Notes: generated by a model not told the origin, from the letters alone. Counted from the stretch's first letter, positions 3,036 through 19,529 are shown. The stretch: 20,000 nucleotides of DNA from an uncultured virus (IMG/VR IMGVR_UViG_3300032030_000060) (IMGVR_UViG_3300032030_000060), one strand, 5' to 3'. Numbers and translations are program-made.

Positions 3036-3172
3036 AAAATCGATTCTAAACCACTTTTTAAGCGTTCTGGCGCACGATAACCGTGAAGATGGGTAACTAC
3101 ACCACCGAAGCCGTTTTAACACGACACAGAGCGATTTTCACACATCATCGCCAGAAACATAAATTTAACCAG

Positions 3173-3205
3173 TGCAAATATAACAAACTTTGAATATAAA
3201 AACAA
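3173..3205 (-). promoter_or_regulatory. Bacteroidota sigma-A promoter driving the minus-strand ssb-like operon
   Basis: The minus strand reads TATATTTGCA (3182-3173), matching the -7 consensus TAnnTTTG, with TTG ~20 nt upstream (3205-3203). Confidence 0.55.
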
Positions 3206-3402: not shown

Positions 3403-4120
3403 TACACACATACACGCACACGCACACGTGCGCACACACGTAATACGTCAAGACTATTTTACTCGTCAAGACTTAAACACTATAAACGAACGATTTTGAC
3501 GTAAACTAAAAAAAACAGTATACTGAAATAATAATATACTTAACGACTAAATATCTGATAACATAATACGTAAATTCTTAATCTATATCTATTTTTTTCT
3601 TCAAAATTTATTTTTTTTAATTTTAAAAATTTTCTCTAAATTATTTTTTTTCTGGAAATAGTATATGCACCAACGGACTTTCGGCGGCGGCGTTATCCCC
3701 CACCCGTGCGCCTTGCGGCAGCGAAAACGGCCAAAAACCGACAAAAACCGACAAATATTTGTCCGCATTGAACATTATGCAAAAATATTTCTGCAAATTA
3801 CATTATATCAATAAGTTACAAAGATTTTTGTGCTTTCCCTTGCATTATTCCATGTGAGACGAAAAATGAATAAAAATTGTATATTTAACCGCTCTAAAAT
3901 TTGTCTATTTTGGGCTATCTATATCTATAATTTATAGTCTTACTTCTTATCTTCTTATCTTATCTTCTTACTATTATACTATAATACTATAATATTATTA
4001 TACTATAGTACTATTATAATAGTGTTATATTATAGTAATACACTATAGTTTATGATTTACATTTACAAATTTACATATATAAATATTTAAGAAATTAAAT
4101 TACAAATGTAAATCTTTACA
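3403..4120. repeat. AT-rich low-complexity control region with short tandem repeats
   Basis: CA/CG alternating tract at 3403-3441; A/T tracts at 3590-3652; AAAAACCGAC x2 at ~3733-3752; TCTTA/TCTTCTTA repeats at 3938-3971; TACTATA repeats at 3977-4048. No credible ORF. Confidence 0.7.
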
Positions 4121-4152
4121 CGCATATAATAAGGTACGTGATACGAGAGGAA

Positions 4153-4318
4153 TGAGTGTAATTTATACACTTAAAAAACTGTACGTTTCAATGAGTGTGA
4201 TTTATACACTCAATCTGCGCAGATCTGCTTTAAGTGTATTGTTTATACTTAATCGGCGGTCTGTTTTTGGTGTAATAATTACACTTATTATTCGGTTTAT
4301 GCGTAATTTTAACGCATA
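4153..4318. repeat. Array of five 21-bp imperfect palindromes (operator/iteron-like)
   Basis: TGAGTGTA-ATTTA-TACACTTA (4153), TGAGTGTG-ATTTA-TACACTCA (4192), TAAGTGTA-TTGTT-TATACTTA (4231), TTGGTGTA-ATAAT-TACACTTA (4267), TATGCGTA-ATTTT-AACGCATA (4298). Confidence 0.85.
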
Positions 4319-4438
4319 AAATAAAATATGAGAAAACTCAAAAAAAATTTTTGTTTATAAGTCGCTGAAAATCAATGAGTTACAGAAAACTCAAGAAAAA
4401 AAATGCATAGTGTTAACAAATTGGATACACTTTTTTTA

Positions 4439-4470
4439 TTGTTGGTTAAAAAAATATTTCTATCTTTGCA
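4439..4470 (+). promoter_or_regulatory. Bacteroidota sigma-A promoter (probable strong early promoter)
   Basis: TATCTTTGCA at 4461-4470 matches the -7 consensus TAnnTTTG. TTG at 4439-4444 is at -33-like spacing. Confidence 0.75.
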
Positions 4471-4475
4471 TCAGA

Positions 4476-5520
4476 ATTCAAAACGGAGACGGTGGCCGTT
4501 TAAAAAACACCGAGCTAATTAGGCTATTTGCTCTTTGATTTAGTTAACATACGGCTGAATGTTGAAGGCTGCGGCTAGTGCTGGTTATTTCTCCTCATGT
4601 GTGGTTTTTGATTGAGGTCTGCCGCAGCGGTTGCTTTTACATTGGAACAAGTAAACGTCAAATCATTCAGCTCAGAAAAGTTTGGAACGCGCCAAGGAAT
4701 TGGAGCGGAGCAAATAAGCGAAAAATCAGATTTAACCCAATTTTGTATTTTGGCTGCTTTTTCAGTGTTTTGCGAGTTACTTTTCCGACAATTACTTTGA
4801 GTGAGGGCTGCGGAACGGCATTTGCCTATTAATTCCCAATTGCCGCAGTTAGTTTTCCGAGTGATATTTTATCCGTTATTTTAGCCGTTTGTTTGGCAGA
4901 GTAATTTAGTAGGAAGACGTTGAAAACTTGGGCACAAGTAAGAAAAAGGAAAACGGGAAGTAACAAACACTACACAATTTGCGAGTGAAGGACGTAATTA
5001 CCGAAAAAATAAGTTTTATGTTCTTTGCGTAGGCAAAGTACAGTCTGCGAAGATATAGCAGATATTGCCCGTTGAAAGTGCAGTTAGGTGACAGTTGACT
5101 GCGATACGGGAGAGTTATTGATAATTAGTATTTAGAGAAACAAGTAAGTACTAAAATCACATGTTTAATTAATTGTGGCGAATACTATCAGCAGAACAAA
5201 TAAAACACCAAGTTTTGCGCCTATCATTATAGGTATTGTTTTGGTGTTTTTGTTTTGTCGTTTTTGCGCCGTTTGCACAAGTTTATTACTTGGGCGCAAA
5301 TAACGAGCAAGGACTATCATTATAGTCGTACTATAGTATTTCAATACGGACAAAATAGGTAGTTTAATTAAAAGATTGCAATCTATCTGAAAATCTTATT
5401 GTGTGTATATTTGCGGCGGGGCTGCGAAGTTATTTAGATAGCCAATTTCTGCACACGAATTGGAGAAAAATAAGTATTCCCCTTCCCGCTTACTGCGGGC
5501 CGCAAATAACTAATTAGAGT
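4476..5520 (+). ncRNA. Candidate large (~1,040 nt) multi-domain structured RNA
   Basis: More than 15 nested helices found by eye, a 5' H-type pseudoknot, a closing helix 4515-4522/5510-5517, G-U pairs favouring the + strand, and no credible ORF. It starts just after the promoter. Confidence 0.7.
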
Positions 5521-5565
5521 TTATTTATATTATACAATTAACTAAAATTTATAGGAGACAGAATT

Positions 5566-6084
5566 ATGAAAACTGCAAATGTAAATGTTATCAATGAGTT
5601 ACGTAAAAAGGTAGCAAACCTTGAGCGTAAAACCTACTCCCTCAATCAAGCGGCCAAGGCTCTGTCAGGTATCGGCACCGACGCAGAGAAAGAAGTCCTC
5701 GGAGTCAAGACGTTTTCACTCGCTGAAATCAAGGCTGCGTGGAGTACCAAACTTATGATAGACGGCGAAATGGGACTGTACATGACGCAGCCCTACACTA
5801 TGCTCGTGGAGGAGAAAGAAGTCCGCCTGTTTGAGAGAACAGAAGGCAAGAAGGGCGTGTCGTTCAGGGCATTGAGTGTCCGCCGTCTGCAAAAACCCGA
5901 GAAGTGGACGCCTGCCATCATCCTCGAGGGCTTGGTGCAGAGCAGATTCCCCGACTTGGCTGCGGAGGAGGCGGCAGATACATTTAAGCATGTGAATGAC
6001 GTCGACGTCATGTACCGCAAGGTCACCAAGAAGGATGCAAACGGATTCATGTCGGTCACCTTCGAGGAGGTTGACGCAGAATAA
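5566..6084 (+). CDS. Hypothetical protein (first gene of the + strand early region)
   Basis: 172-aa ORF with AGGAGA and an A/T-rich leader, coding-like codon usage. Confidence 0.85.
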   Translation: MKTANVNVINELRKKVANLERKTYSLNQAAKALSGIGTDAEKEVLGVKTFSLAEIKAAWSTKLMIDGEMGLYMTQPYTMLVEEKEVRLFERTEGKKGVSFRALSVRRLQKPEKWTPAIILEGLVQSRFPDLAAEEAADTFKHVNDVDVMYRKVTKKDANGFMSVTFEEVDAE

Positions 6085-6105
6085 CCGCAAATGTACGCAA
6101 GCACG

Positions 6106-6134
6106 GGACCTGGGCACGTCGGTAAACTACCCAG
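6106..6134 (+). ncRNA. Small H-type pseudoknot motif, copy 1
   Basis: GAC-CTGGGCAC-GTC-GGTAAAC-TACCCAG. Stem 1 is GAC/GTC; loop CTGGG pairs with CCCAG. Confidence 0.55.
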
Positions 6135-6199
6135 CGGTAACTCCACCTACGCACATGCGTAGTCCGTAGGCCAAGTCGGGATAAAGGAGGAGGTCGGCT
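6133..6199 (+). ncRNA. Twister self-cleaving ribozyme (P1-closed type)
   Basis: P1 AGCGG/TCGGCT, conserved U^AA (6138-6140), P2 CTCC/GGAG, P3 CTACGC/GCGTAG, P4 TCCG/CGGG with loop ...CCAAGT, ATAAA linker and GAGG. Pseudoknots are CC/GG and AC(6145-46)/GT(6175-76), a compensatory version of the usual GC/GC. Confidence 0.85.
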
Positions 6200-6211
6200 C
6201 ACTATCACGCA

Positions 6212-6352
6212 GGCCGCCGTGTCTGTGCTGATGGGGTTTTCGTTTGGCGTGGTTTGCTCCACTGATAGAGCCAAACTGCGCATATCAAGTCCGCAGGCAG
6301 GTGTGCCGCCTTCGGGAGAAGGTGCGTCGGGTCGGGTCTGACGGCGGGCACA
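6212..6352 (+). ncRNA. Unidentified multi-stem structured RNA with tRNA-like 3' closure
   Basis: CCGCC 6214-6218/GGCGG 6343-6347; GTTTGGC/GCCAAAC; GTGG/CCAC; TGCG/CGCA; GCCTTC/GAAGGT; a 5-bp stem with 7-nt loop GTCGG-GTCGGGT-CTGAC. Confidence 0.45.
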
Positions 6353-6407
6353 AGTATTTATTCACTAAAGCAGCCGCAGCCGCTCACGTGTGGGGGTGCA
6401 AAGTAAC

Positions 6408-6656
6408 ATGAAATTAAAACTTAATTTTTGCTCCGAGGTGCAGTGCGCCAAGGAATTTGCAGAATTTATAAACTCATGCACATTCCAAAACTTAACTGGA
6501 GGGATAATGGTCCTCCAAGTTATTAAAAACAAAATTGCAGTTTATGGCTGCAATTTGGACTGTAGCATCACAAACAATGTGATGTATATTGACGGCGAGC
6601 CAGCCGTAGATTTCGATAAAAGAGAAATATTAATAGACTACGCTTTTGATGAGTAA
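6408..6656 (+). CDS. Hypothetical protein
   Basis: ATG at 6408 (MKLKLNF) within the listed 6390..6656 ORF. Confidence 0.7.
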   Translation: MKLKLNFCSEVQCAKEFAEFINSCTFQNLTGGIMVLQVIKNKIAVYGCNLDCSITNNVMYIDGEPAVDFDKREILIDYAFDE

Positions 6657-6660
6657 GTCA

Positions 6661-6687
6661 CGTCCCGAGCATGACGCAAAACTGCTC
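6661..6687 (+). ncRNA. Small H-type pseudoknot motif, copy 2
   Basis: CGTC-CCGAGCAT-GACG-CAAAAC-TGCTC. Stem 1 is CGTC/GACG; stem 2 is GAGCA/TGCTC. Confidence 0.6.
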
Positions 6688-6694
6688 ACTGCAT

Positions 6695-6765
6695 AGCCCA
6701 TTTGTGTAAAGGTAGCACGGCGCACTATGTGCGTAGGCGTGGGTTCGACTCCGACATGGGCTTCA
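6695..6765 (+). tRNA. tRNA-like RNA or degenerate tRNA with non-canonical 5-nt anticodon loop
   Basis: Acceptor AGCCCAT/ATGGGCT, D arm GTGT-AAAGGTA-GCAC, anticodon arm GCGCA-CTATG-TGCGT, T arm GTGGG-TTCGACT-CCGAC (one mismatch). No encoded CCA. Confidence 0.65.
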
Positions 6766-6794
6766 ACGTCTAAAAAATACAAAACAAAACAACA

Positions 6795-6920
6795 ATGAAA
6801 ACAAAAACAAAGGATTTAATCGAGGCTATGGCACATGTGCTCGGCCTCAATAAGAATGAACTTGCCGCAGGATATGCGGCATTTGTGAACGATTTCTTTG
6901 GCAAGGAGGTCGTCGCATGA
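6795..6920 (+). CDS. Small hypothetical protein (41 aa)
   Basis: MKTKTKDLIEAMAHVLGLNKNELAAGYAAFVNDFFGKEVVA*, preceded by a Bacteroidota-type A-rich leader. Confidence 0.6.
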   Translation: MKTKTKDLIEAMAHVLGLNKNELAAGYAAFVNDFFGKEVVA

Positions 6921-7023
6921 TACAAATAATCATCTTCGCATGGGCTTGCGCATCTATCGCAGGTCTGTGCGCACTTCGCGAAAACAATTAACATAAACAT
7001 AAACCAATAAAATTTCAACTATT

Positions 7024-8439
7024 ATGGCAACAATTAATTTCAAAAACGCAATAACGAATGAGACAATCAGCGTGGCTAACATCAAAAAAGTAGCCGACCG
7101 CGAGTATTTCTTCACCGTCCGCGACAAGGGCTGCGGAACAAAGTTCTTCAACCGCAACGTCTGCTTTGCCAATAACGGCGACACCAACTATGGCGGCAAG
7201 AATGGCACGTCGCTCATCCTCATCGAGGGCTGGGAGCCAGTTGACGAGCCGAAGGCACGCAAGCCACGCGCGCCAAAGGCCGCTGTCACCGCAGAACCGA
7301 CAGTCAGCGCACCCGTGACCGCAACGCTCACCGAGCCCGTTGTGACCGAGCCTATCGTGGCTGAGCCTGAGCCTATTCCCGCAGAACCCGTGGCAGAACC
7401 CGAACCAACAGTCGCAACCGCCGCCACCCTAATGGCGATGCTGAATGTCACAGCCAAAAATCTCTCAAAAAAATACGGCGAACTTGCTGGCGACATCATC
7501 AACGCAGTGACCGCAGCCGTTGTCAAGGTGTGCGAGACCACAGTCAACGCCGACGAGGTCAAAAAACTAATCGACGAGCGTGTGAAGGCTCTCTGTGGCA
7601 CGGTCACAACAATCGTCGTGAAGCAAGCATCTGGCGTATCTAAGACGCTCAAGGGCGTGTTCCACAAGTCATTCGACATCTTCTGTAATCTTGTTGGTGC
7701 TGACAAGCCGTTGTATTTCTACGGCCCTGCTGGGTGCGGAAAGTCGTACATGGCGAAGCAGATTGCCGACGCTCTTGGCCTCGACTATTACGAGACCTCG
7801 CAAGCCATGTTTGCCCACGACCTCAAGGGCTACGGCGATGCCAAGGGAGAGTATGTCGGCACGCCGTTCTATAAGGCTTTTAAGTTCGGCGGCCTCTTCT
7901 TCCTTGACGAAGTTGACGCATCAGCACCCGAGGCTTTGGTTGTGTTGAACAACGCTATCGCTAACAAGCGTTTTGATTTCCCAGTGATAGGCAATGTAGA
8001 TGCACATCCTAATTTCCGTGTGATTGCAGCAGGTAACACACGCATGACTGGTGCAACGTTGGCGTACACCGCAAGACAGTGTCAAGATACGAGTTTTAAG
8101 AACCGCTTCTTCTTCGAGTTGGTTGGCTACGACGAGCGCATAGAGTTGTCTATTGCCAACGGCGACAAGGAAATCGTGGAGTTCGCCCACGACATCCGCA
8201 AGGCCGCACGTGAGACCAACATCTTGCAGTTGTGTTCCTATCGGCAGATTAAGGACATGGCGACTCTGTTGCCATGTGTGAACGGCGACCCTTCCCACAT
8301 TGTGCGCGGTAGCGTGTTACAGGAAAAAGAGGTCGACGAGGCCAATATCCTCTACTCTCACCTTGCCCACAAGAGCAATCCTTGGGCAAAGGCAATGAAA
8401 GCCGAAATAGAGAATATGAAAAACGAGGAGGTGTGGTAA
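7024..8439 (+). CDS. MoxR/CbbQ/CobS-like AAA+ ATPase (dynein-related AAA_5 type) with N-terminal domain and Pro/Glu/Thr-rich linker
   Basis: Walker A GPAGCGKS, Walker B FFLDEVD, 'AHPNFRVIAAGNT' sensor region and 'DTSFKNRF' Arg finger. Confidence 0.9.
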   Translation: MATINFKNAITNETISVANIKKVADREYFFTVRDKGCGTKFFNRNVCFANNGDTNYGGKNGTSLILIEGWEPVDEPKARKPRAPKAAVTAEPTVSAPVTATLTEPVVTEPIVAEPEPIPAEPVAEPEPTVATAATLMAMLNVTAKNLSKKYGELAGDIINAVTAAVVKVCETTVNADEVKKLIDERVKALCGTVTTIVVKQASGVSKTLKGVFHKSFDIFCNLVGADKPLYFYGPAGCGKSYMAKQIADALGLDYYETSQAMFAHDLKGYGDAKGEYVGTPFYKAFKFGGLFFLDEVDASAPEALVVLNNAIANKRFDFPVIGNVDAHPNFRVIAAGNTRMTGATLAYTARQCQDTSFKNRFFFELVGYDERIELSIANGDKEIVEFAHDIRKAARETNILQLCSYRQIKDMATLLPCVNGDPSHIVRGSVLQEKEVDEANILYSHLAHKSNPWAKAMKAEIENMKNEEVW

Positions 8440-8460
8440 CACCCTCCTCTACTTCCTTTT
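8425..8460 (+). terminator. Hairpin overlapping the ATPase stop codon (terminator/attenuator-like)
   Basis: GAGGAGGTGT/ACACCCTCCTC stem followed by TACTTCCTTTT. Confidence 0.4.
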
Positions 8461-8496
8461 CGTTGAATACAATATACAATAAAATAATATTATATC

Positions 8497-9324
8497 ATGG
8501 CTGATTTTTTCAAAAGGTTCGAGAACGTGACATCTTTGGTCACGTATCTCGACGAGGCTCCCGTACAGCCCTACTTTTTGGGTTGTCAGTCCTCGAAATC
8601 CACAAGCAACCCGCATTTCTATGGGTACGACTCGTACGAAGATGCCCGCGAGAAGATGCTCAACGGCGACAAGGAACTTGCAAAAAAGTTGCGTGGTACG
8701 GCAAAGTTAGACATTAACGTTCCTGCCACCGCGACAAAAAAGCGCATGGTGACGCGAGTCGTGGGGTTCATGCCGCATGTGCCTAATTATTTGGCTGGTG
8801 TACCCAATAACATGGTTTGGGTCGAGGAGCAAAAAGTAACCGAGCCTGTTATTACAATCGTTTATAACATCGGTTGTTTAGGGTCTTCATCAAGCGACAC
8901 GGTCACTAAGGTTTCGGCACGCATCATGTCGGCAATCATGTCAGCGGAGCGAAAAGGTTATAGAATCAACCTTTACGTTGCATCCGCACAGACACAAGGG
9001 AAGCAGTGCTGTGGTCTTTTATGTAAAGTAAAAGATAGCGGGCAGCATATTGATACGCTAAAAATGGCCGTACCGATGATTTCTCCCGCTATGAATCGTC
9101 GATTCGGCTTCCGCTTCAGAGAGACAATGCCTGGACTATCGGAGGACTGGGTGTACGGATATGGAAGTTCAATGGGAACGTACGAATTTCAGTCGTTCCT
9201 CAATAGGCAGAACTTTAAATATGATATTGCTATCGCTTTCGAGAGCGTCAAGCATATAAAGACGCAAGATGAACTTGAAAAGATGTTCATCGACGCATCT
9301 AAAAAAATAAAGCAAAATCACTAA
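8497..9324 (+). CDS. Putative vWA-like (CobT/CoxE-type) partner of the AAA+ ATPase
   Basis: Adjacent to a MoxR-type ATPase. 'GFMPHVPNYLAGVP' is followed by a beta-alpha-beta pattern (ITIVYNIG..SARIMSAIMSAERKGYRINLYV). The MIDAS motif is degenerate. Confidence 0.6.
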   Translation: MADFFKRFENVTSLVTYLDEAPVQPYFLGCQSSKSTSNPHFYGYDSYEDAREKMLNGDKELAKKLRGTAKLDINVPATATKKRMVTRVVGFMPHVPNYLAGVPNNMVWVEEQKVTEPVITIVYNIGCLGSSSSDTVTKVSARIMSAIMSAERKGYRINLYVASAQTQGKQCCGLLCKVKDSGQHIDTLKMAVPMISPAMNRRFGFRFRETMPGLSEDWVYGYGSSMGTYEFQSFLNRQNFKYDIAIAFESVKHIKTQDELEKMFIDASKKIKQNH

Positions 9325-9344
9325 CAATTTAAATATTCAAAAAC

Positions 9345-9854
9345 ATGGCAAAGTTAACAAAAGCCGAACTTGAAATGCTCGGCATCACAGAAAGCACAAA
9401 AGAGAGTGTAAACAACGAGTCGACAACCGCAGCATCCGCAACAGATGCGCCAGTCACGGCCACAACGCCCATTCATGAGCCGACAATCAGCGACGAAGAG
9501 CGTGAAAAGTTAACAAAAGAGTTTGTTGGGCATTTGGTGGTGGCTACGATACGTGGCCGTGAGTGCTACGGCGTGTGTGATAACATTTACAACACGCCAT
9601 ACGGCACAATGCTCGGGATTCTGTATAAATACGGCAAAGACGAGTGGCACGCCGCCCTCACCGCACCAACCAACGTGAAGAAGGCAGAAGGAAGCGAAGA
9701 GGAAAAAGCACGGACGTCCGCACTTTACTATTGTGAAATGGAGTCAAACTCCTTGCGTTGGCGCATAGCGAAGGAGAAGGCGTCTGGTGCGATACCGACA
9801 CGTGAAGAATACATGCTTCAGCGCATTGAGCGCATCCGTGAGCGCATCGCATAG
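9345..9854 (+). CDS. Hypothetical protein
   Basis: 169-aa ORF with an A-rich leader and a Thr/Ala-rich N-terminal linker. Confidence 0.8.
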   Translation: MAKLTKAELEMLGITESTKESVNNESTTAASATDAPVTATTPIHEPTISDEEREKLTKEFVGHLVVATIRGRECYGVCDNIYNTPYGTMLGILYKYGKDEWHAALTAPTNVKKAEGSEEEKARTSALYYCEMESNSLRWRIAKEKASGAIPTREEYMLQRIERIRERIA

Positions 9855-9869
9855 GCGGCTCACTATCAC

Positions 9870-9935
9870 GGCGGCGGTCATGGTGACGTGAAAGCGAATG
9901 CTGGAACGTGGTGGTTCGATTCCACTGCCGCTTCA
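9870..9935 (+). ncRNA. Reduced tRNA-like RNA
   Basis: Acceptor-like GGCGGC/GCCGCT, D-like GTCA-TGG-TGAC, mini arm AGC-GAAT-GCT and canonical T arm GGTGG-TTCGATT-CCACT. It ends CTTCAA like the 6695 element. Confidence 0.55.
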
Positions 9936-9991
9936 AAGAAACAATCTTAAAATAACAACAATATCGTTTAATTTAAAACATTACAACTATT

Positions 9992-10471
9992 ATGAAAAGA
10001 GAAGAATACACAAAGCGCGTCAACGAAATGTGCGCTTACATTGACGACCATGCTTACGACAACATGGCAAAAGAACTGAAAGAGCGCAAAATTACCAACC
10101 CTCTCACATACGGAGCATGGTGCGAGCGCAACTTTGAGTTGAATTTACGAGAGGACTACAAGCGTATGACGACATGTACGTCAGATTTAAGCATCGCTGA
10201 ATGGTGTGTACCTATTGAGGGTATGACGGCAATATCCTCAACTTTGCGAAACATGGTTCTATTCTGGCGTGACAATATCGAGTTGATGGCCGAGTTTATA
10301 ATCGTGCTGAATATGAATGCACGGGAGCACCACGCAAGAAGGAACGTCAACTATGCCGATATGTATAGCGAACTTTACCTTATGATGAAGGATTTGTTCT
10401 TTGATTGGTTTGACGAGAGCAATCCAAATCACGACGAGGCGGTACGCTACTACTATGATTACGTCGACTAA
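9992..10471 (+). CDS. Hypothetical protein
   Basis: 159-aa ORF with A/T-rich leader. Confidence 0.8.
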   Translation: MKREEYTKRVNEMCAYIDDHAYDNMAKELKERKITNPLTYGAWCERNFELNLREDYKRMTTCTSDLSIAEWCVPIEGMTAISSTLRNMVLFWRDNIELMAEFIIVLNMNAREHHARRNVNYADMYSELYLMMKDLFFDWFDESNPNHDEAVRYYYDYVD

Positions 10472-10537
10472 TTTGTTCACACTCACGCGCCGCTTGCGAA
10501 CACTGGCGGCGCATACTTTAACAATCACACAACAACA

Positions 10538-10813
10538 ATGAAATATCAACTTTTAATTACAGCGAATTGCGACAGCGACAGCGTCGTGATTTTCGCACAA
10601 GAATACGAGAAAAGCATCGTAAGCGACGGAAGAATAAAAGAAGTGATTTCCTCACTTATACCATGCGTAAAATGGGAATATGACGACGGCGACGACGTGG
10701 TTGGCACTAATTATTGCCAGTATGCTGCGTACACCGAGCCAGAAGACTATACCCACTACCTTCTCGCGTCGTGGAATGCAATCGACGAAACAAAAGGGTG
10801 TGGTATTATTTAA
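10538..10813 (+). CDS. Hypothetical protein
   Basis: 91-aa acidic ORF with ACAACAACAATG leader. Confidence 0.75.
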   Translation: MKYQLLITANCDSDSVVIFAQEYEKSIVSDGRIKEVISSLIPCVKWEYDDGDDVVGTNYCQYAAYTEPEDYTHYLLASWNAIDETKGCGII

Positions 10814-10864
10814 CTCTCGCGCAAGTAATAATAATTAATATATTATAATTAATAAATTTCAATT

Positions 10865-11215
10865 ATGAAAACGAAAGATTTTATCTGCTACGTGGTTTTA
10901 GGCATACAGCCTGACTTTATCGACAACCTTTGCGACGAGTTCGACGTAGACTTTTCGTATGACGACATCAAAGAAATACTCGACATGTGTTCGGGTGGCT
11001 TCCAAAAAGAAGACCATTACAACAGTGTAGGCAATGAGATTATACGCCACATCTACGGCCAAATCATCGCCTACCACAACGACGTTCTGGACGAAAACAA
11101 GTTTGATTATATACTTGACGGAAGATGCAGCCGCCTGTACTACGACGGAGAAACAATTTACTCTAAGCAGGACATTGAGAACTTAGAGGAACAGCACGAA
11201 CTTGAGACAAAGTAA
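10865..11215 (+). CDS. Hypothetical acidic protein
   Basis: 116-aa D/E-rich ORF. Confidence 0.8.
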   Translation: MKTKDFICYVVLGIQPDFIDNLCDEFDVDFSYDDIKEILDMCSGGFQKEDHYNSVGNEIIRHIYGQIIAYHNDVLDENKFDYILDGRCSRLYYDGETIYSKQDIENLEEQHELETK

Positions 11216-11243
11216 AAGTAAAAGTAAACAACATATAGCAAAT

Positions 11244-11552
11244 ATGGAAGCAATTAAGATTTGGCTTGTTACTCAAGAAAGTAACGTTGATGGACTGATT
11301 GTGTTCAATGTAGTCCCTTGCATTAGCGAAGATACGGCAAAGCGAGTGTTGCAAAAAGAAGTGCAAACACTATTAAGCGAATCTCCTAAGTACAAAGATG
11401 CTAAGCGATGGATGGATGGAGATGATAGCCTAAACTATGACGACTGCCCATACACATGGGAGAGCGATAACGACGATGCGTTCTACATCTCTTGCGTATA
11501 TGATGACTATTATGAGTTAATCAAAATAGAAAAGAAAGAAATCCAGTATTAA
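11244..11552 (+). CDS. Hypothetical acidic protein
   Basis: ATG at 11244 (MEAIKIW) within the listed 11202..11552 ORF. Confidence 0.75.
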   Translation: MEAIKIWLVTQESNVDGLIVFNVVPCISEDTAKRVLQKEVQTLLSESPKYKDAKRWMDGDDSLNYDDCPYTWESDNDDAFYISCVYDDYYELIKIEKKEIQY

Positions 11553-11637
11553 CCTATGGCAAAAGTAATTTTAACCGATGCAATCATCAACGAGAGAAAT
11601 TGATAACTTTGGTATTAACCACATAAACATAACGACT

Positions 11638-12000
11638 ATGGCAAGGTATGAGGTTTACGACAACAACGACGAGGTCATTATGGAAACAATTAAGATTTGT
11701 AAAATTTCACCCGAAAACGGATATGAAGACGGAATCGCCGAATACAACGGCAAACTAAGCGCAGTTTACGCACTGTGCTTGTATGTGTGTCAACGCTTAT
11801 GGCACACAGACTACCTTAATAAGCGGATGATTGAGAAAGCAAGAAGCATGATAACGCTCGGCAAATCAAACAAGGCTTGCTACTTTTGGGCTAACAACGA
11901 CGTAACGTATTCCGCTATAGCAACAAGTGGAAAAGACGCAATCACTGGCGAGTTTGGAAGTAAGTATGATTATGAACCAAATTATCCGACAAAATGTTAG
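11638..12000 (+). CDS. Hypothetical protein
   Basis: ATG at 11638 (MARYEVY) after an A/C-rich leader, within the listed 11578..12000 ORF. Confidence 0.7.
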   Translation: MARYEVYDNNDEVIMETIKICKISPENGYEDGIAEYNGKLSAVYALCLYVCQRLWHTDYLNKRMIEKARSMITLGKSNKACYFWANNDVTYSAIATSGKDAITGEFGSKYDYEPNYPTKC

Positions 12001-12006
12001 AGGATT

Positions 12007-12162
12007 ATGAAGACATACTTTATCTACACATCAGCAAGCGGCGAGGAACACCGTATCGACGTTGAAAAATTCATGCAAGAATACGCCTACAATGACATCG
12101 TGCATTGTAAACGCAACCTCATGGGATGGATTGGAACTAACAAACATTTTGAATATGAATAA
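12007..12162 (+). CDS. Small hypothetical protein (51 aa)
   Basis: MKTYFIYTSASGEEHRIDVEKFMQEYAYNDIVHCKRNLMGWIGTNKHFEYE*; fills the gap and overlaps the next start. Confidence 0.6.
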   Translation: MKTYFIYTSASGEEHRIDVEKFMQEYAYNDIVHCKRNLMGWIGTNKHFEYE

Positions 12163-12949
12163 ATATGCTACTTACATTCGAGTCTCTACGGCCAAACAAG
12201 GTCGTAGCGGATTAGGACTGGAATCACAACAAAAGATATGCGGCGATTTTATTGCCGCTCAAGGCGGGACGAAAATCGCCGAATTTAAAGACGTCGAGTC
12301 TGGCACACATCGTGACAGACGAGGACTCATTGCGGCGATAGAGTTCTGCAAGACCAACAAATGCGGATTGGTCATCGCTAAACTTGACCGTCTTGCAAGA
12401 GATGTCGAATTTTGTTTCCGTGTTGTTAACACGGGCATCGATATTCATTTCTGCGACATGCCAACAATTAACACATTGTTGTTAGGCGTTTTCGCAGCCG
12501 TGGCGCAATACGAAAGAGAACTTACAAGTGATAGAACGAAAAAGGCACTTGCTGCCAAGAAAGCACGTGGTGAAAAACTTGGTGGTGCTTCGCTCGGATG
12601 GCAAGTATCATACAAACTTAAAACAAAAGAAGAAAAACAAAACGAATCTATGGAAAGAGGTAAAATGAAGCGGTCTCGACATCAGACATCAAGAGACACG
12701 CAAGCATTTATTAGGGTACTCAAAAGAGTGTTCCCTAATGCCACATTGGGCGACGACCCCTCAAAATGGCTATGGAATCAAATTTGTTGTAAACAGCCAA
12801 AAAGAGACGAGATACTCTCTATCATGGCTGATTACCAAAATATTGATTCAACGTTATTCCCAAATTGGGATTTCAAGCTATCAACAGAAAAGAATGCGCA
12901 GAAACTGCGCTCTTATATGCAAGCGTTCAAAAAATCATTTATTAACTAA
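12155..12949 (+). CDS. Serine recombinase (resolvase/invertase family)
   Basis: Start MNKYATYIRVST with catalytic YxRVS. Also 'DVESG', 'LVIAKLDRLAR' and 'AVAQYERELTSDRTKKALAAKKARGEKLG'. Confidence 0.92.
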   Translation: MNKYATYIRVSTAKQGRSGLGLESQQKICGDFIAAQGGTKIAEFKDVESGTHRDRRGLIAAIEFCKTNKCGLVIAKLDRLARDVEFCFRVVNTGIDIHFCDMPTINTLLLGVFAAVAQYERELTSDRTKKALAAKKARGEKLGGASLGWQVSYKLKTKEEKQNESMERGKMKRSRHQTSRDTQAFIRVLKRVFPNATLGDDPSKWLWNQICCKQPKRDEILSIMADYQNIDSTLFPNWDFKLSTEKNAQKLRSYMQAFKKSFIN

Positions 12950-12961
12950 AACAAAATAACT

Positions 12962-13051
12962 ATGGCAATTATTCTATTGTTCGGATTCATCGGCTGTATC
13001 CTTAACGGCGACCTCATTAAGATGGGTGGTCGTGGTGGTAGAAAACTCTAA
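12962..13051 (+). CDS. Small hydrophobic peptide (29 aa)
   Basis: MAIILLFGFIGCILNGDLIKMGGRGGRKL* with an A-rich leader. Confidence 0.45.
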   Translation: MAIILLFGFIGCILNGDLIKMGGRGGRKL

Positions 13052-13114
13052 ACACTATCAGGACCGCCGAACGGAAAACAGTCACTTAAACATTAAAACA
13101 ACAAAATTTTAAAT

Positions 13115-13453
13115 ATGACAACAACTGATTTTTACGACATCGGAAAACTTGGCCGTGCCCTCATCGCTTTTGAAAAAGCGATGGCAAATTATCGTGCAAT
13201 TATCGAAGGCCGTGAAACAATAGCAAAAGGCATGAGGAGCAAATACCCAAATATGAAGATAGATGCCATTCGCAGCCAAATGGCGACGCAAGAAGAACAG
13301 TTTTTTATGGCGGCTCAAGTTGAGTACGACGACGCAAAATGCTGCGCTTGTAGTCTCGGCATTGAGTTGCCAACTATCGATGTGAAAAAAGATGTTCTTA
13401 ACATCTTACGATTACGAAAAAAATATGTAGAACTTAAAAATATCAACGTATAA
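13115..13453 (+). CDS. Hypothetical helical protein
   Basis: 112-aa ORF with A-rich leader. Confidence 0.8.
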   Translation: MTTTDFYDIGKLGRALIAFEKAMANYRAIIEGRETIAKGMRSKYPNMKIDAIRSQMATQEEQFFMAAQVEYDDAKCCACSLGIELPTIDVKKDVLNILRLRKKYVELKNINV

Positions 13454-13454
13454 C

Positions 13455-13598
13455 ATGGGAAAAAAGAAATGTTGTATCTGCGGTCGGACATTTATAGGTT
13501 ACGAAAATAATCCGTGGCCTATTGAAAACGATGGAGTGTGCTGCGACACATGCAACGAAAAAGTGATAACCGAACGTTTAAAACTTATAACAAAATGA
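13455..13598 (+). CDS. Small Cys-rich (zinc-finger-like) phage protein
   Basis: MGKKKCCICGRTFIGYENNPWPIENDGVCCDTCNEKVITERLKLITK*; CxxC...CxxC. Confidence 0.7.
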   Translation: MGKKKCCICGRTFIGYENNPWPIENDGVCCDTCNEKVITERLKLITK

Positions 13599-13831
13599 TA
13601 ATGAACAACATCAACGACAACGAAAAGAGCGCACGTACCCAATGCGCTCAAATCGTAAAATGGTTAGAGCAGGGTTACTCAATCACCTCACTTGAGGCAT
13701 TGCAAATGTTCGGGTGCATGCGCCTTGCATCACGCATTTGCGACCTCCGTGAACGTGGCTATCAAATCAATACTTGCAAAATCAAGACTGCAACTGGTAA
13801 ATGGATTACAGAATATACTTTAAAAAAATAA
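13595..13831 (+). CDS. Winged helix-turn-helix protein (HTH_39-like)
   Basis: 'TQCAQIVKWLEQGYSITSLEALQMFGCMRLASRICDLRERGYQI'; ATGA overlap with the upstream stop. Confidence 0.8.
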   Translation: MIMNNINDNEKSARTQCAQIVKWLEQGYSITSLEALQMFGCMRLASRICDLRERGYQINTCKIKTATGKWITEYTLKK

Positions 13832-14074
13832 TGTTATGACGAACATCGGATTAAAGTACTTATCTACAGTTTCTTCCGAATTGCGTGAAATAAAAGAACA
13901 GTTAGAAAAACCAACGATACCTTGGTGCTTATTGCCAAGGTTATGAACGAGCGCAAATAACGTGTTTTTTAAGCACGCTACGGCACTTTGCTACACTTTG
14001 TGGGATAACCTACCCACCAGTAGTTACAAAACCGCTTAAAACGTTTAAAAAATAACTAAAGAATAAGAGGAATC

Positions 14075-14347
14075 ATGGCAACAATTTATAAAACAAACGG
14101 AACAGAGGTGGAAATACAGCCGCAGAACGGAAAAGATTTCACACTACAAGAAATGCAGGACATTGTCGGTGGCTACATCGAAATACTGCCAATTGGCGAC
14201 TATTTGATGGTTATAAACGAAGAAGGGAAATTGAACGGATTAGGAATCAACAAGAAAGCCACTGATATTTTCCTCTCATACTATCTTTACTCATTCGACA
14301 TCATCGTTGGTGATGTACTTGTTTGCGAAGCGAATCAAATTATATAA
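14075..14347 (+). CDS. DUF3846-like phage protein
   Basis: 'TLQEMQDIVGGYIE...MVINEEGKL...N..AT...IVGDVLV' motif pattern. Confidence 0.75.
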   Translation: MATIYKTNGTEVEIQPQNGKDFTLQEMQDIVGGYIEILPIGDYLMVINEEGKLNGLGINKKATDIFLSYYLYSFDIIVGDVLVCEANQII

Positions 14348-14364
14348 ACTTAAAACGAAAAGAA

Positions 14365-14673
14365 ATGGAAGAGATTATTAAAATCCGTTGCCAAAAATGC
14401 GGAGAGATAAAACCGCAGAGAATGTTCAAAAAGACTCGTTGGGGAAACTTTTCGATTGTGTGCAACGAATGCGTCGCCGCCGCAAGGCATGCAAATGCGC
14501 AGAAGAAAATAAACTCTGAGATTGAAAGTGTTAAAGTTGAACTTGAAAAAGCGAGACTGTTACGTATCTCAGAGTTCTCTCCTCGTGAACTGATGCAAGA
14601 ACTTGCTCGTCGTGGCTACGAAGGGAAACTGACGTACACCACTACACACACAATTGACATCACTAATTTCTAA
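14365..14673 (+). CDS. Hypothetical protein with N-terminal zinc ribbon
   Basis: ATG at 14365; CQKCG...CNEC; C-terminal 'FSPRELMQELARRGYEGKL'. Confidence 0.75.
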   Translation: MEEIIKIRCQKCGEIKPQRMFKKTRWGNFSIVCNECVAAARHANAQKKINSEIESVKVELEKARLLRISEFSPRELMQELARRGYEGKLTYTTTHTIDITNF

Positions 14674-14737
14674 TCGTATCATCGTGCGACTTTTGTGAGA
14701 TAACTACTCACCAAGTCACACATAAAGCATTACATTT

Positions 14738-15145
14738 ATGTTCAATCAACAAAAATTCAACAAGTGGGAAGAAGAGACTCATATTCCGAAGAAGATTATG
14801 GATATGGTCGAATGGATATGCGAAAAATGCGGTGTCTGTTTGATAGAAGAAACAATCACGTTGCGTAACAGAGGAGGTTATGCTTATGCTTTTGCAAAAG
14901 GCTACCAATACTCTTATTGTACGTCCTCGTATGAGGACGGGCCTGATGTAGACTATTCAGATGAAATCGCAAAATGGCTGAAGGGACTTGGTTTTATAAT
15001 CGAAAACTCTTATGGTGACAACGGATTAGATAGCGCAACGAATTGGCACGACACTTTTGGGCATTACGATTTCGTGTACCAGCCGACAAAGGTGTATGCC
15101 GAAATATTTGAAGAGTATTCCGATGATGATGATGACTATGAGTAA
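14738..15145 (+). CDS. Hypothetical protein with acidic C-terminus
   Basis: 135-aa ORF ending SDDDDDYE. Confidence 0.8.
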   Translation: MFNQQKFNKWEEETHIPKKIMDMVEWICEKCGVCLIEETITLRNRGGYAYAFAKGYQYSYCTSSYEDGPDVDYSDEIAKWLKGLGFIIENSYGDNGLDSATNWHDTFGHYDFVYQPTKVYAEIFEEYSDDDDDYE

Positions 15146-15165
15146 AAGTTAAAAATGTTAATGTT

Positions 15166-15199
15166 TTTTGGAATATTCCAAATTATAATTAAATTTGCA
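15166..15199 (+). promoter_or_regulatory. Bacteroidota sigma-A promoter
   Basis: TTTG at 15166-15169 and TAAATTTGCA at 15190-15199. Confidence 0.6.
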
Positions 15200-15369: not shown

Positions 15370-15537
15370 ATGAAGAACGCTATCACTATCATCGCCGCCG
15401 TTATCGCTGCTGCTGCAATCGTTATGTTCATGGTCATTTCGTGGACATTTGACAATTGGTTCACTGGTGTTATCACTGGTGTATCTCTCGCTGCATACCC
15501 ATCTTGGGTAAAAGAATCATTCACAGATAAAAGATAA
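15370..15537 (+). CDS. Small membrane protein (55 aa, 1-2 TM)
   Basis: MKNAITIIAAVIAAAAIVMFMVISWTFDNWFTGVITGVSLAAYPSWVKESFTDKR*. Confidence 0.6.
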   Translation: MKNAITIIAAVIAAAAIVMFMVISWTFDNWFTGVITGVSLAAYPSWVKESFTDKR

Positions 15538-17059: not shown

Positions 17060-17287
17060 ATGACACTACTAGCACAACAATTAGGCAAGATTATTCGTGA
17101 GAGGGGAGGCTATCTTCCCTCCCACGACAACTGGCTTGAAGAGAAAGCCAGTGAATTACGTCAGATGAATATAAGAACTATTATAGAGTTGTTTATCTCC
17201 TGGAATGGAGAAGACAGCCCTATAGATATTGCCAATATTGATTCAGCAATAGAGTATATAAACAAATGTATGGAGGAACAACAATGA
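17060..17287 (+). CDS. Hypothetical protein (ends MEEQQ)
   Basis: 75-aa ORF ending in the repeated junction. Confidence 0.7.
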   Translation: MTLLAQQLGKIIRERGGYLPSHDNWLEEKASELRQMNIRTIIELFISWNGEDSPIDIANIDSAIEYINKCMEEQQ

Positions 17288-17502
17288 AAGATTTCTTGAA
17301 AAGAGTAGCAATTCTTATTTTCGCAATATTTTTATTTCCCGTAATAGGACTAATATGTGTATTTGACCTAATTATAATGATTCTATATTATCTGTACAAA
17401 GGTAGATTTTGGTGGTATGATTATAACCCTTTATTTATAGTCTTTTTGGAATTAATTTACGAAGGAAAATGTGAATGGAGGAATAACAATGACAAGGTAT
17501 AA
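17284..17502 (+). CDS. Small membrane protein
   Basis: ATG at 17284 (MKDFLKRVAILIFAIFLFPVIGLICVFDLIIMILYYLY); hydrophobic. Confidence 0.65.
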   Translation: MKDFLKRVAILIFAIFLFPVIGLICVFDLIIMILYYLYKGRFWWYDYNPLFIVFLELIYEGKCEWRNNNDKV

Positions 17503-17641
17503 AGTAGGAGATGTTATACGTTATTTTGATACTGAAGTAATTATTACTGAAGTGGACGATTATGGATATCATGGTATCAATGCAGCAATACCTTTTGCTG
17601 CTGAAAAGTATTGTACTTTAATAAATGAAGAACAACAATGA
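17489..17641 (+). CDS. Small hypothetical protein (50 aa, ends EEQQ)
   Basis: MTRYKVGDVIRYFDTEVIITEVDDYGYHGINAAIPFAAEKYCTLINEEQQ*. Confidence 0.65.
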   Translation: MTRYKVGDVIRYFDTEVIITEVDDYGYHGINAAIPFAAEKYCTLINEEQQ

Positions 17642-17760
17642 AAATAGAAACAAGAAAACTTAACAAAATGTTATTTATCATACCATCAATATCAATAGAC
17701 TATGAATATAAGTTTATTAGTCTTGTATGGTTAAGATGGGGTATTTTTATAGGGAAATAA
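17638..17760 (+). CDS. Small hypothetical protein (40 aa)
   Basis: MKIETRKLNKMLFIIPSISIDYEYKFISLVWLRWGIFIGK*; starts in the junction motif. Confidence 0.55.
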   Translation: MKIETRKLNKMLFIIPSISIDYEYKFISLVWLRWGIFIGK

Positions 17761-17777
17761 AGGATTGGAGGACAACA

Positions 17778-18032
17778 ATGACCTACGAAGAGAGAGAAAA
17801 AAGACTTTGCAATAACTGCGAAGCAAAAGAAAACTGTTCCTACATAAGCAGAAACCTTGAAAGAAAATGTTCTTTTAAGGAAACTACTATGTATGGTTGG
17901 GAACTTGGCTACAAGGATGCTGTTGCCAAGGCTTGTGAGTGGCTAAACAACTTCTATAATGAAGAAACACATAGTTATCTTGTGAAAGAAGATATTGACG
18001 CTTTCCGTAAAGCAATGGAGGAACAGCAATGA
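17778..18032 (+). CDS. Hypothetical Cys-containing protein (ends MEEQQ)
   Basis: ATG at 17778 in the junction motif; 'KACEWL...DAFRKAMEEQQ' module. Confidence 0.75.
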   Translation: MTYEEREKRLCNNCEAKENCSYISRNLERKCSFKETTMYGWELGYKDAVAKACEWLNNFYNEETHSYLVKEDIDAFRKAMEEQQ

Positions 18033-18169
18033 CGTATAAAACATACACAAGACAAGAGTATCTGCAATGGTGTAAAAACAATGGCGTCAAGAATCCATTG
18101 CCTGAATATAAACGAAATAAGTTCACCATAAGCGGTTATCCAACATATCCGTATGACAAAAATTTCTAA
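18029..18169 (+). CDS. Small hypothetical protein (46 aa)
   Basis: MTYKTYTRQEYLQWCKNNGVKNPLPEYKRNKFTISGYPTYPYDKNF*. Confidence 0.55.
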   Translation: MTYKTYTRQEYLQWCKNNGVKNPLPEYKRNKFTISGYPTYPYDKNF

Positions 18170-18185
18170 ATAAGGAGGGACAACA

Positions 18186-18374
18186 ATGACAAAAGAAATC
18201 AATATTGAGGAATACCGACCACACATAGTATCGGAAGTTATATGCGTAAAATGCTACAAAAGATGGATTGCCGTAAGACCTTCAATAACCAAACTTAAAG
18301 ACCTTGAGTGTCCAAATTGTGGGGTAGGATATGTAATAGAAACAGGTGAAGAAATAAATACTGACGAAGAATGA
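18186..18374 (+). CDS. Zinc-ribbon protein
   Basis: CVKC...CPNCG. Confidence 0.7.
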   Translation: MTKEINIEEYRPHIVSEVICVKCYKRWIAVRPSITKLKDLECPNCGVGYVIETGEEINTDEE

Positions 18375-18625
18375 TATTTTATCATGGAACATCGAAAGAA
18401 AACTGGGATATCATCAAAAGGGAAGGTGTCTTGTTTAATGGTAGGGTTACATATCTTGCTGTAAATATGGGAGAAGCCAAATGCTATGGTAATATTGTCT
18501 TGCAAGTAAAGTATGACCCAACTACTCATCCTAATATGAATAACTATGTAGATGGTTGTTGGCTGTTTAGGGTGTACGAACCAATAACAATTGAAAACAT
18601 AAAAGTAATGGAGGAACAAAAATGA
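18371..18625 (+). CDS. Putative minimal ADP-ribosyltransferase-fold protein
   Basis: N-terminal FYHGTS, then 'I..EG', 'YLA....A..YG.IVLQV' and C-terminal 'I..ENI', a pattern typical of H-Y-type ART/Tpt1-like folds. Confidence 0.5.
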   Translation: MIFYHGTSKENWDIIKREGVLFNGRVTYLAVNMGEAKCYGNIVLQVKYDPTTHPNMNNYVDGCWLFRVYEPITIENIKVMEEQK

Positions 18626-18706
18626 CGGATAAACAAAAGAAAGCGCTGAAAATACTGAATGAACTGAGGAGTTTATGAATAATTTTAAAAAAGCGATGGA
18701 GGAGCA

Positions 18707-18871
18707 ATGACACAGGAAGAAATAAAAGAAGCAATTGAAGACCTTGATGAAGAGGTGCTGTTAACAATCATTGAATGCTGCAAAGAACTCAACATTAAGG
18801 GAATGCAAATGTGCTTCTGGGATAGGTATAGTTTAATGGATGTGATTGACAAAGTATTGGAGGAACAATAA
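18707..18871 (+). CDS. Small hypothetical protein (54 aa, ends LEEQ)
   Basis: MTQEEIKEAIEDLDEEVLLTIIECCKELNIKGMQMCFWDRYSLMDVIDKVLEEQ*. Confidence 0.65.
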   Translation: MTQEEIKEAIEDLDEEVLLTIIECCKELNIKGMQMCFWDRYSLMDVIDKVLEEQ

Positions 18872-19140
18872 TGAACACAAGAGAAGAACAAATTATTAAA
18901 GCATCGCAACTTTATGCAAAACACTTGCAGAAGCCATTCATGGATGGTGCAATGTGGGCTGATGCTCATCCCAACCTCTACAGCGTGACAAGGAAGTCAG
19001 TTGAAAGGGAAAGGAAATATTTGATTAGAGAGGCTTGTGATTGGTTGAGAGCCAACTTGCAAAACTATTGGAGTCAGAGTGTGACAGCCCCTGAAAAGTT
19101 TATCAATGACTTTATGCAATACATGAAAGAAAAACAATGA
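18871..19140 (+). CDS. Hypothetical protein (F..GA.WAD and ACDWL modules)
   Basis: 89-aa ORF coupled to neighbours on both sides. Confidence 0.75.
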   Translation: MNTREEQIIKASQLYAKHLQKPFMDGAMWADAHPNLYSVTRKSVERERKYLIREACDWLRANLQNYWSQSVTAPEKFINDFMQYMKEKQ

Positions 19141-19529
19141 AAAAATTAAAAAAAGCAGCGTATGACTACGCAACAAAAAGGCAGCAAGACACTAATTTCC
19201 CAGTGTATAATTTGGAGACTGAAATCACTGATGCTTTCATCGTAGGAGCACAGTGGTGGATGGGACATAACCTTTGGGTGGATGCCCAAGGTGATGACCT
19301 ACCAGAGATTGATAGAGAGGTTATCGTACTTTGCGACGATGGTCATGAAGGCTATAAGGTTTGTTTTGCACATAGACCATACAAGAAAGGATACCTTGGG
19401 AAGAGTCTTGTAACAGGGAATATTGAAACCTTTTATCCGCAAGTATACGGTAAAGGTGGATGGAATATCCCCGACGTAAAATGGTGGTTAGATGTCGAAT
19501 TGCCTAATTTGGAGGAGGAACAACAATGA
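19137..19529 (+). CDS. Hypothetical protein, DUF551-like C-terminal pattern
   Basis: 'AFIVGAQW..WVDAQGDDLPEIDREVIVL...VKWWLDVELP'. Confidence 0.7.
   Translation: MKKLKKAAYDYATKRQQDTNFPVYNLETEITDAFIVGAQWWMGHNLWVDAQGDDLPEIDREVIVLCDDGHEGYKVCFAHRPYKKGYLGKSLVTGNIETFYPQVYGKGGWNIPDVKWWLDVELPNLEEEQQ

Follow-up and report, generated by a model that had tools for sequence, protein, structure and literature searches.

Ribozymes and tRNA-shaped RNAs in the gaps of a phage early gene block: candidate cutting and stabilizing marks of one long transcript

A 20,000-nt stretch of DNA from an uncultured virus (IMG/VR IMGVR_UViG_3300032030_000060), referred to here as the window, was analyzed for the RNA elements that lie in the gaps of a gene block beginning with gene A. 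These gaps hold a type-P1 twister ribozyme whose catalytic architecture, judged from the sequence, is intact, two tRNA-shaped RNAs (T1 and T2), and a repeated leader word. T2 and the word are conserved in place among related phages, and ribozymes of another class are found in the same gaps of relatives. The best reading of these elements, to which we would give about even chances, is that they are cutting and stabilizing marks of one long transcript.

The window is part of a tailed phage and opens with the end of a tape-measure gene (1-882), which is followed by a 2.4-kb stretch poor in open reading frames (ORFs) and then by a long run of + strand genes. Its nearest relatives are three viral contigs of 73-81 kb (L001-L003, also numbered G001-G003), the AAA+ proteins of which share 55-59% identity with that of the window; a fourth relative is L051 (G004). 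Of the 26 loci found in a metagenome scan, several are duplicates of these contigs.

The twister was recovered by two covariance models. In a permissive search, the Rfam twister-P1 model (RF03160) matched 6134-6198 over its full length (model positions 1-68) with 36 bits (E 1.2e-4 in 20 kb, 2e-6 in 341 nt). As an independent test, viral contigs were scanned for the 3' half of the twister core, which returned 119 loci of an estimated 580; a filter requiring UAA and then a 4-bp P2 kept 34 of 110 distinct matches, and 24 phage twisters were aligned once three rows judged spurious, another with a long insert, and the window sequence had been dropped. In this alignment 98% of cells pair, although P2 pairs by construction of the filter and the two inner pairs of pseudoknot T1 are fixed by the search pattern. 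The outer pair of pseudoknot T1 is UA in 18 sequences, CG in five and GC in one, and the variable pair of pseudoknot T2 is GC in 18 and AU in six, all 24 being paired at either position; in the wider set (n=34), eight T/ACC and 21 C/GCC variants are found at pseudoknot T2. A model built from these 24 sequences, with the window excluded (R1), matched 6130-6202 with 34.3 bits (E 2.1e-7), which was its single match in the 354,063 bases searched; these comprised the window, G001-G003 in full and 21 further loci.

The window sequence has the complete element order of a twister, namely P1, UAA cut site, P2, (P3), P4, UAAA, P2', GAGGN and P1', with CCAAG as the L4 word. Pseudoknot T1 (L4 with L1) consists of G6170.U6194, C6171-G6193 and C6172-G6192, and pseudoknot T2 (L4 with L2) of G6175-C6146 and U6176-A6145, the same A-U variant being present in six of the 24 phage twisters. 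The twister fold is defined by the double pseudoknot of L4 with L1 and L2 together with the U-A cut site (PMC6154101, partial text). On these sequence grounds the window twister is genuine, with both pseudoknots kept by compensatory changes. Its predicted cut lies between U6138 and A6139 and would leave the ribozyme on the downstream RNA; a real twister would be bound to cut any transcript that includes it.

The gap after gene A differs among the four lineages compared. It holds the twister in the window and a pistol-like RNA in L003 (4440-4538, 20 nt past the gene-A homologue; 26.7 bits, below the Rfam cut-off of 34.5), and no structured RNA in L002 and L051. If P1 (UGCAC-loop-GUGCA) of the L003 element is set 10 nt upstream, a 7-bp pseudoknot can form between ACCGAGC in the P1 loop and GCUCGGU in the P2-P3 junction, and a pseudoknot between these two parts defines the pistol class (PMC6154101, partial text). 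Against the same cut-off, L059 contains a pistol (RF02679) at 76-152 with 56.5 bits, directly before a leader near-identical to window 6367-6410, and the more distant L068 contains one with 57.2 bits, 550 nt past its DUF7192 gene; the pseudoknot words of these two pistols covary. More distant relatives have other structured RNAs, or a pistol, after the DUF7192 gene. The type-P1 twister cuts near its own 5' end and the pistol near its own 3' end (PMC6154101, partial text), so that the two leave structure on opposite fragments, which suggests that the cut itself would be selected rather than the side that keeps the fold. Two observations on the distant relatives may be added. At L068 1240-1400, the pistol has a copy of CCACATGGCC on either side, which is a border word unlike that of the window and specific to this lineage, and L064, a relative with 35% identity, has a structured GC-rich element closed by GGGUGC/GCACCC right after its DUF7192 gene (3950-4040).

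T2 is composed of an acceptor stem, a D-like hairpin, a variable middle arm and a canonical T arm, and contains neither an anticodon loop nor an encoded CCA. Its T-loop word GGTTCGATTCC (9913-9923) closes on a 5-bp T stem that is stacked directly on a GGCGGC/GCCGCU acceptor helix. Copies of T2 are present at the same place after the gene-D homologue in L001 (7755-7839; 26.7 bits in Rfam) and L003 (about 7736-7800), and the minimum-energy folds of both are four-way junctions. All three lineages keep the acceptor helix stacked on a T arm with a GGUUCGAYUCC loop, and the third T-stem pair differs by lineage (U-A, U.G, C-G). The middle arm is an unrelated hairpin in each (about 4 bp in the window, 8 bp in L001 and 7 bp in L003), and the spacer around T2 is unalignable. 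RNase P, RNase Z and the CCA-adding enzyme recognize an acceptor stem plus T arm. Because these parts are conserved and the anticodon position is free, T2 appears to show the pattern expected of a processing signal; neither a decoder nor an anticodon-nuclease decoy would be expected to have it. The decoy role, which a preliminary description of this DNA had raised, is thus disfavored for RNAs that have no normal anticodon loop.

T1 folds as a complete cloverleaf with all four arms, every helix of which is intact except for one pair, a G.G in the T stem. Its anticodon arm (GCGCA-CUAUG-UGCGU) has a stem of 5-6 bp and a loop of five bases, or of three (UAU) if the C-G pair closes, and not the 7-base form with a readable anticodon; T1 is therefore unable to decode. 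No CCA is encoded in T1, ARAGORN called no tRNA over the window, and a search of viral contigs with the D-loop and T-loop words of T1 returned one match, an ordinary tRNA-Met. The CACUAU word in the anticodon arm was treated as chance, being a common 6-mer of the window with 12 copies where 8.8 are expected.

The third recurrent element is the leader word. The exact sequence CGGCTCACTATCACG stands at copies 1 and 2 (Table 1), and its core CACTATCA has four copies in the window, all on the + strand, a count reached by none of 200 shuffles; one of them, at 15384, falls within an ORF and could have arisen by chance. GCTCACT has three copies in the window, again all on the + strand, and each has a structured element close on its 3' side (the 6212 fold, T1 or T2). 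Copy 3 has homologous sites in G001, G002 and G003. In the relatives, CAC(T/A)ATC(A/G) is found on the coding strand of the same arm, shortly past a stop codon and beside a GGCGG or CCGCC run. The word follows gene D in all five lineages that continue past its stop (the window, L001, L002, L003 and L059; three further contigs end at the gene-D stop and were left out), and is itself followed by T2 in three of them and by GC hairpins in two.

In L051 the word lies in the 9-nt loop of an 11-bp hairpin (z -3.85, equaled by 0/200 shuffles), the sites at L002 7400 and L001 4383 are alike, and in L059 the word precedes a 9-bp hairpin (z -4.92). The arms that flank the word in L051, L002 and L001 are complementary, yet their sequences differ between copies, and for this reason an RNA-level role of the word is favored. 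A conserved loop on a stem of free sequence is also the arrangement of a lambda-type nut site (boxB), which resembles the L051, L002 and L001 4383 sites but not the T2 or L059 copies. Searches of viral contigs gave 22 stretches with the exact 15-mer, 0/22 in a related context, and, in a scan that covered 35 of 64 parts, 117 stretches with the word plus a GC helix, only the L001 contig itself being related.

Several observations concern the surroundings of the word. The small membrane-peptide ORF at 12963-13052, which ends in ...GDLIKMGGRGGRKL and is conserved in G001 and G002, has Gly codons that can pair with the CCGCC run and leader word past its stop (fold z -4.15). The apical loop region of the 6212-6350 fold contains UGAUAG (6263-6268), the complement of the CUAUCA core of the word, although a 6-mer could be chance. 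In L001, a 900-nt gene-free spacer rich in GCAAAGG/GGGCG (3545-4440) ends with the leader word in a hairpin loop, and Rfam gave no family there at E <= 10 beyond chance-level matches. The ordinary tRNA-Gln of G003 (63970-64090) and tRNA-Ser of G002 (reverse complement, 1715-1839) share a conserved upstream word, CGCAAGGCTTGTGAAAGTAGTAGCG, which is unlike the leader word of the tRNA-like RNAs.

Table 1. Positions of the genes and RNA elements discussed in the text (window coordinates unless a relative is named).
Feature	Position	Strand	Evidence or remark
Gene A	5566..6084	+	172 aa, first gene of block; ORF list
Type-P1 twister ribozyme	6130..6202	+	Rfam twister-P1 and independent covariance model
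Leader word copy 1	6195..6209	+	CGGCTCACTATCACG; overlaps 3' strand of twister P1
GC-rich multi-stem fold	6212..6350	+	Closed by 7-bp stem 6214-6220/6341-6347
Conserved leader ahead of gene B	6367..6410	+	Near-identical to L059 167-211 in alignment, about 45 nt
Degenerate leader word	6684..6694	+	GCTCACTGCAT, immediately 5' of T1
T1 tRNA-shaped RNA	6695..6763	+	Rfam tRNA (RF00005) 43.7 bits, cut-off 29
24-codon hydrophobic ORF	6917..6991	+	Translation; similar 23-codon ORF in L001
AAA+ ATPase	7024..8439	+	Pfam AAA_5; matches PHROGs family annotated 'porphyrin biosynthesis'
Stable hairpin over AAA+ stop codon	8425..8449	+	z -3.45, 1/200 shuffles as good; U-rich stretch after
DUF7192 protein	8497..9324	+	Pfam PF23822, E 3.7e-23
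Gene D	9345..9854	+	169 aa; alignment of 8 homologues
Leader word copy 2	9856..9870	+	CGGCTCACTATCACG; adjoins T2 acceptor stem
T2 tRNA-like RNA	9870..9933	+	T-loop word and synteny in L001, L003
Serine recombinase gene	12062..12949	+	Pfam; between leader-word copies 2 and 3
Leader word copy 3	13053..13060	+	CACTATCA then GGACCGCCG; after small conserved peptide ORF, beyond range of preliminary description
CAC(T/A)ATC(A/G) sites in relatives	G001 62001, 65361, 69364; G002 74147, 463; G003 57354, 63768; L051 3424; L059 5314		

TAnnTTTGC, which we take to match the -7 element of Bacteroidota promoters, occurs on the + strand of the window only at 4461, 5406 and 15190, with none between 5415 and 15189. 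At 4461-4545, the promoter-like word TATCTTTGC (4461) is followed by a small hairpin (about 4483-4499) and then by GCTCTTTGA at 4530. The same order of promoter-like word, hairpin and boxA-like word, here GTTCTTTGA, is found in L003 (about 3128-3190) and L060 (about 1935-1975). Both GCTCTTTGA and GTTCTTTGA resemble the boxA words of E. coli (UGCUCUUUAACA) and B. subtilis (AUGAUCUUUGAAA) (PMC13753749, partial text), and a boxA-like leader would fit a terminator-resistant elongation complex. One long transcript thus fits the absence of a + strand promoter word from 5415 to 15189 and the boxA-like leader at the operon head. In agreement with the preliminary description, in which the A-rich leaders after the elements were taken to speak against terminators, the leaders behind the elements are indeed A-rich, and no + strand terminator-like site was found in 6085-9940. 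The leader word was also considered as a boxA and rejected, the word at 4530 being much better. The 1.1-kb, ORF-poor leader from the first promoter-like word to gene A (4470-5565) contains repeated CUGCGG/CCGCAG words and gave no Rfam match. The promoter-like words, which are the only pointer to the host phylum, would suggest Bacteroidota; relatives of the DUF7192 protein were sought in bacterial genomes and none was found, which made a host assignment impossible.

We propose that the block from gene A on would be transcribed by the host RNA polymerase as one long early transcript, in which the long gaps would act as punctuation at the RNA level. The twister would cut itself at U6138/A6139 and free the gene-A message. 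T1 and T2 would offer an acceptor stem plus T arm, on which host RNase P may cut the 5' side and RNase Z or a similar enzyme the 3' side, and the stable GC-rich folds left at the new ends may protect the pieces. The word, in the forms GCUCACU(AU)CA and CAC(U/A)AUC(A/G) beside a GGCGG:CCGCC helix, would mark the borders and is probably read by some factor. The preliminary description had likewise envisaged an early transcript diced by a ribozyme and tRNA-processing enzymes. A genuine twister, the conservation of T2 and the pistols in the gaps of relatives lend this idea partial support, whereas the gain and loss of elements and the singleton status of T1 and the 6212-6350 fold do not. In the comparison of synteny, which it had proposed as a check, T2 and the leader word are kept in place and the twister, T1 and the 6212-6350 fold are private to the window lineage.

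A number of observations weigh against processing of one long transcript. The 36 bits of the twister are below the Rfam gathering cut-off of 67.2, and a search of the window at curated thresholds gave no match at all. The score is low because the window departs from the consensus exactly at the covarying pseudoknot positions (G.U and A-U), and an L4 longer by 2 nt, uncredited by the model, adds to the shortfall. P1 of the twister contains a G.G mismatch, for which it matters that P1 is dispensable (PMC6154101, partial text). R1 found no twister in the relatives searched. T2 does not score as a tRNA, its best Rfam match being tRNA-Sec (RF01852) with 14.7 bits (E 1.2 in 121 nt). Even close relatives differ in which elements they have gained or lost. 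T1 and the 6212-6350 fold each lack relatives, so that selection on these two cannot be shown, and recent damage to a tRNA gene could account for T1. Nor does the word keep one structural setting: it is in a hairpin loop in L051, L002 and L001 4383 and on the 5' side of a helix at T2 and in L059, and it is base-paired in the best fold of window 13020-13085. Finally, most elements have little thermodynamic support (z -0.14 to -1.85).

The remaining folds of the block vary in quality. For the 6212-6350 fold, z is -1.03 and the pair probability of the closing stem 0.62-0.75; Rfam found no family beyond the twister in window 6080-6420, and the fold is absent from all relatives examined, so that the multi-stem RNA of the preliminary description (6212-6352) is not borne out. 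The pseudoknots that it had placed at 6085-6133 and 6657-6694 are likewise weak folds (z +1.65 and -0.50). Its G-U-rich hairpin at 6937-6971 does fold well (z -3.09) but lies within the 24-codon ORF. The gene at 5566-6084, the AAA+ gene, the twister, the repeated word and the tRNA-like RNAs at 6695 and 9870, all of which had been named there, were recovered through the ORF list, the AAA_5 match, the two covariance models, exact repetition at both sites, the Rfam tRNA score and the T-loop word with its syntenic copies, respectively. The hairpin over the AAA+ stop codon is possibly a weak terminator or a 3' stabilizer. The leader at 6367-6410 and its L059 counterpart precede unrelated proteins (no alignment at E <= 100), and an 18-nt word from this leader had 0 exact matches in viral contigs.

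Besides cutting and stabilization, four other readings were weighed. A more specific one, which we regard as speculative and rather unlikely, holds that a dedicated factor of phage or host origin, either binding or cutting RNA, recognizes CAC(U/A)AUC(A/G) with the GGCGG:CCGCC helix, a signal that would define the cistron borders, with self-cleaving ribozymes, tRNA mimics and hairpins as interchangeable end-forming blocks behind it.

We hold it doubtful, to a similar degree, that the elements are portable RNA modules, each a ribozyme or tRNA-like insulator plus a leader, which travel with single accessory genes and fix the 5' end of the cassette. The gaps would then be exchange hot-spots and not part of a coordinated programme, and separate functions may exist for some tRNA-shaped RNAs, for example, binding tRNA-handling or defense proteins via the T arm and acceptor stem. 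This would accord with the leader of roughly 45 nt that stands before unrelated proteins in the window and L059, behind different ribozymes, and with the gene content, which varies among relatives right after the place of T2 and also from gene A to the AAA+ gene. Each of the three elements twister, T1 and 6212 fold belongs to a single lineage, and the other structured RNAs or pistol after the DUF7192 gene of distant relatives point the same way. However, T2 and the word are held at one position although the neighboring proteins of the lineages that keep them are only 26-57% identical, which is more than would be expected of a passing passenger, and no protein partner is known. Moreover, the portable modules overlap with the best explanation, in that cutting would still be their action.

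It is improbable that CACTATCA is instead a DNA signal, serving as a middle promoter or bound by a phage regulator or recombinase, with the GC folds as 5' structures of separate primary transcripts and the tRNA-like RNAs as small RNA genes with their own starts. The word does stand a few bases ahead of a structured element and about 60-140 nt ahead of the next gene, on the coding strand only; it resembles what we take to be the CACTAT core of T7/SP6-type promoters, and the serine recombinase gene lies between copies 2 and 3. No single-subunit phage RNA polymerase (PF00940) was found in the three near-complete genomes of relatives (0/3), a weak negative as the control was silent in every genome, and none of the 83 ORFs of G001 was a polymerase or sigma factor. 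The word is also unlike the host-type promoter word, and the complementary, sequence-divergent arms in L051, L002 and L001 are the signature of an RNA or single-strand fold and not of a duplex protein site; a duplex recombination site was rejected on the same grounds, the arms being unconserved between copies.

Least probable of all, we consider, is that tRNA genes in decay account for T1 and perhaps T2, the rest being functionless GC-rich intergenic debris: T1 stands alone, its anticodon loop is shortened and its T stem contains one G.G, and ordinary tRNA genes lie in the same arm of two relatives (tRNA-Ser in G002, tRNA-Gln in G003), but the T1 helices are otherwise intact, three lineages retain the perfect T loop and acceptor stem of T2 despite an unalignable spacer, and both twister pseudoknots are kept by compensatory changes.

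Homologues of gene A in L002, L003 and L051 share 38-42% identity, and gene A had no match in Pfam or PHROGs and none in a PDB sequence search; no family was found for gene D in Pfam, PHROGs or the ESM Atlas, which gave nothing usable for genes A and D. The whole window had no blastn match among phage GenBank records. Elsewhere in the window, an AT-rich tandem repeat with a period of 8 (3961-4016; five 24-nt copies spaced 8 nt) lies in the gene-free stretch between the structural and early arms and is possibly an origin or packaging region. Eight genes at 17265-19529 each start after a repeated Shine-Dalgarno block of the GGAGGAACAACAATGA type; no such block precedes the early genes at 5.5-13 kb, the leaders of which are A-rich.

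Cutting of polycistronic RNA at structured spacers has several precedents. In mitochondria, tRNA units are excised from polycistronic transcripts by RNase P and RNase Z, and the phage units are similarly tRNA-shaped and placed between cistrons on the coding strand; they differ in being non-decoding and present in some gaps only, and their cleavage is predicted. In phage T7, RNase III hairpins between early genes cut the polycistronic message and leave stabilizing structures. The proposed scheme would likewise cut an early phage message in its intergenic gaps, whereas the hairpins here have 9-11 bp, shorter than is usual for RNase III sites, and a ribozyme and tRNA-like RNAs are involved. In the mascRNA of MALAT1, a tRNA-like element for 3'-end processing, and in synthetic ribozyme or tRNA operon spacers, a mimic of acceptor stem and T arm, or a ribozyme, serves only to signal a cut; those examples are eukaryotic or man-made, and the present elements belong to a phage.

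Clusters of twister, hammerhead, pistol and hatchet ribozymes, in which different classes likewise lie near each other and near phage genes, have been described in bacteria and phages (PMC6765202, partial text). The same source, as far as its available part extends, suggests processing of polycistronic transcripts without settling it and treats the function of bacterial and phage self-cleaving ribozymes as an open question. In gut phages, theta ribozymes, which are hepatitis delta virus-like, adjoin tRNA genes (PMC10879173, partial text), which similarly places a ribozyme beside a tRNA-type RNA. Ribozyme clusters near phage genes, the suggested polycistronic processing and ribozymes beside working phage tRNAs are therefore already in print. 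The present block differs from the ribozyme-rich neighborhoods in that ribozymes alternate with non-decoding tRNA-shaped RNAs and GC hairpins behind a shared word, and from the theta ribozymes, which flank working, often suppressor tRNAs, in that its tRNA-like RNAs are non-decoding and its ribozyme is a twister. A literature search, with subscription journals outside its scope, found no account of non-decoding tRNA mimics alternating with ribozymes as operon spacers or of the leader word.

This phage clade offers a natural comparison, in which the same gap holds a twister, a pistol or, in two lineages, nothing, and in the next conserved gap the same word always stands first, followed by either a non-decoding tRNA mimic or a hairpin. 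The comparison among lineages opens a direct test of whether the function is the cut itself, and the findings point to tRNA mimics as processing signals in phage operons. If the word is indeed read by a dedicated border factor, such elements would be natural insulators that let accessory genes swap in an antiterminated early operon without disturbing their neighbors.

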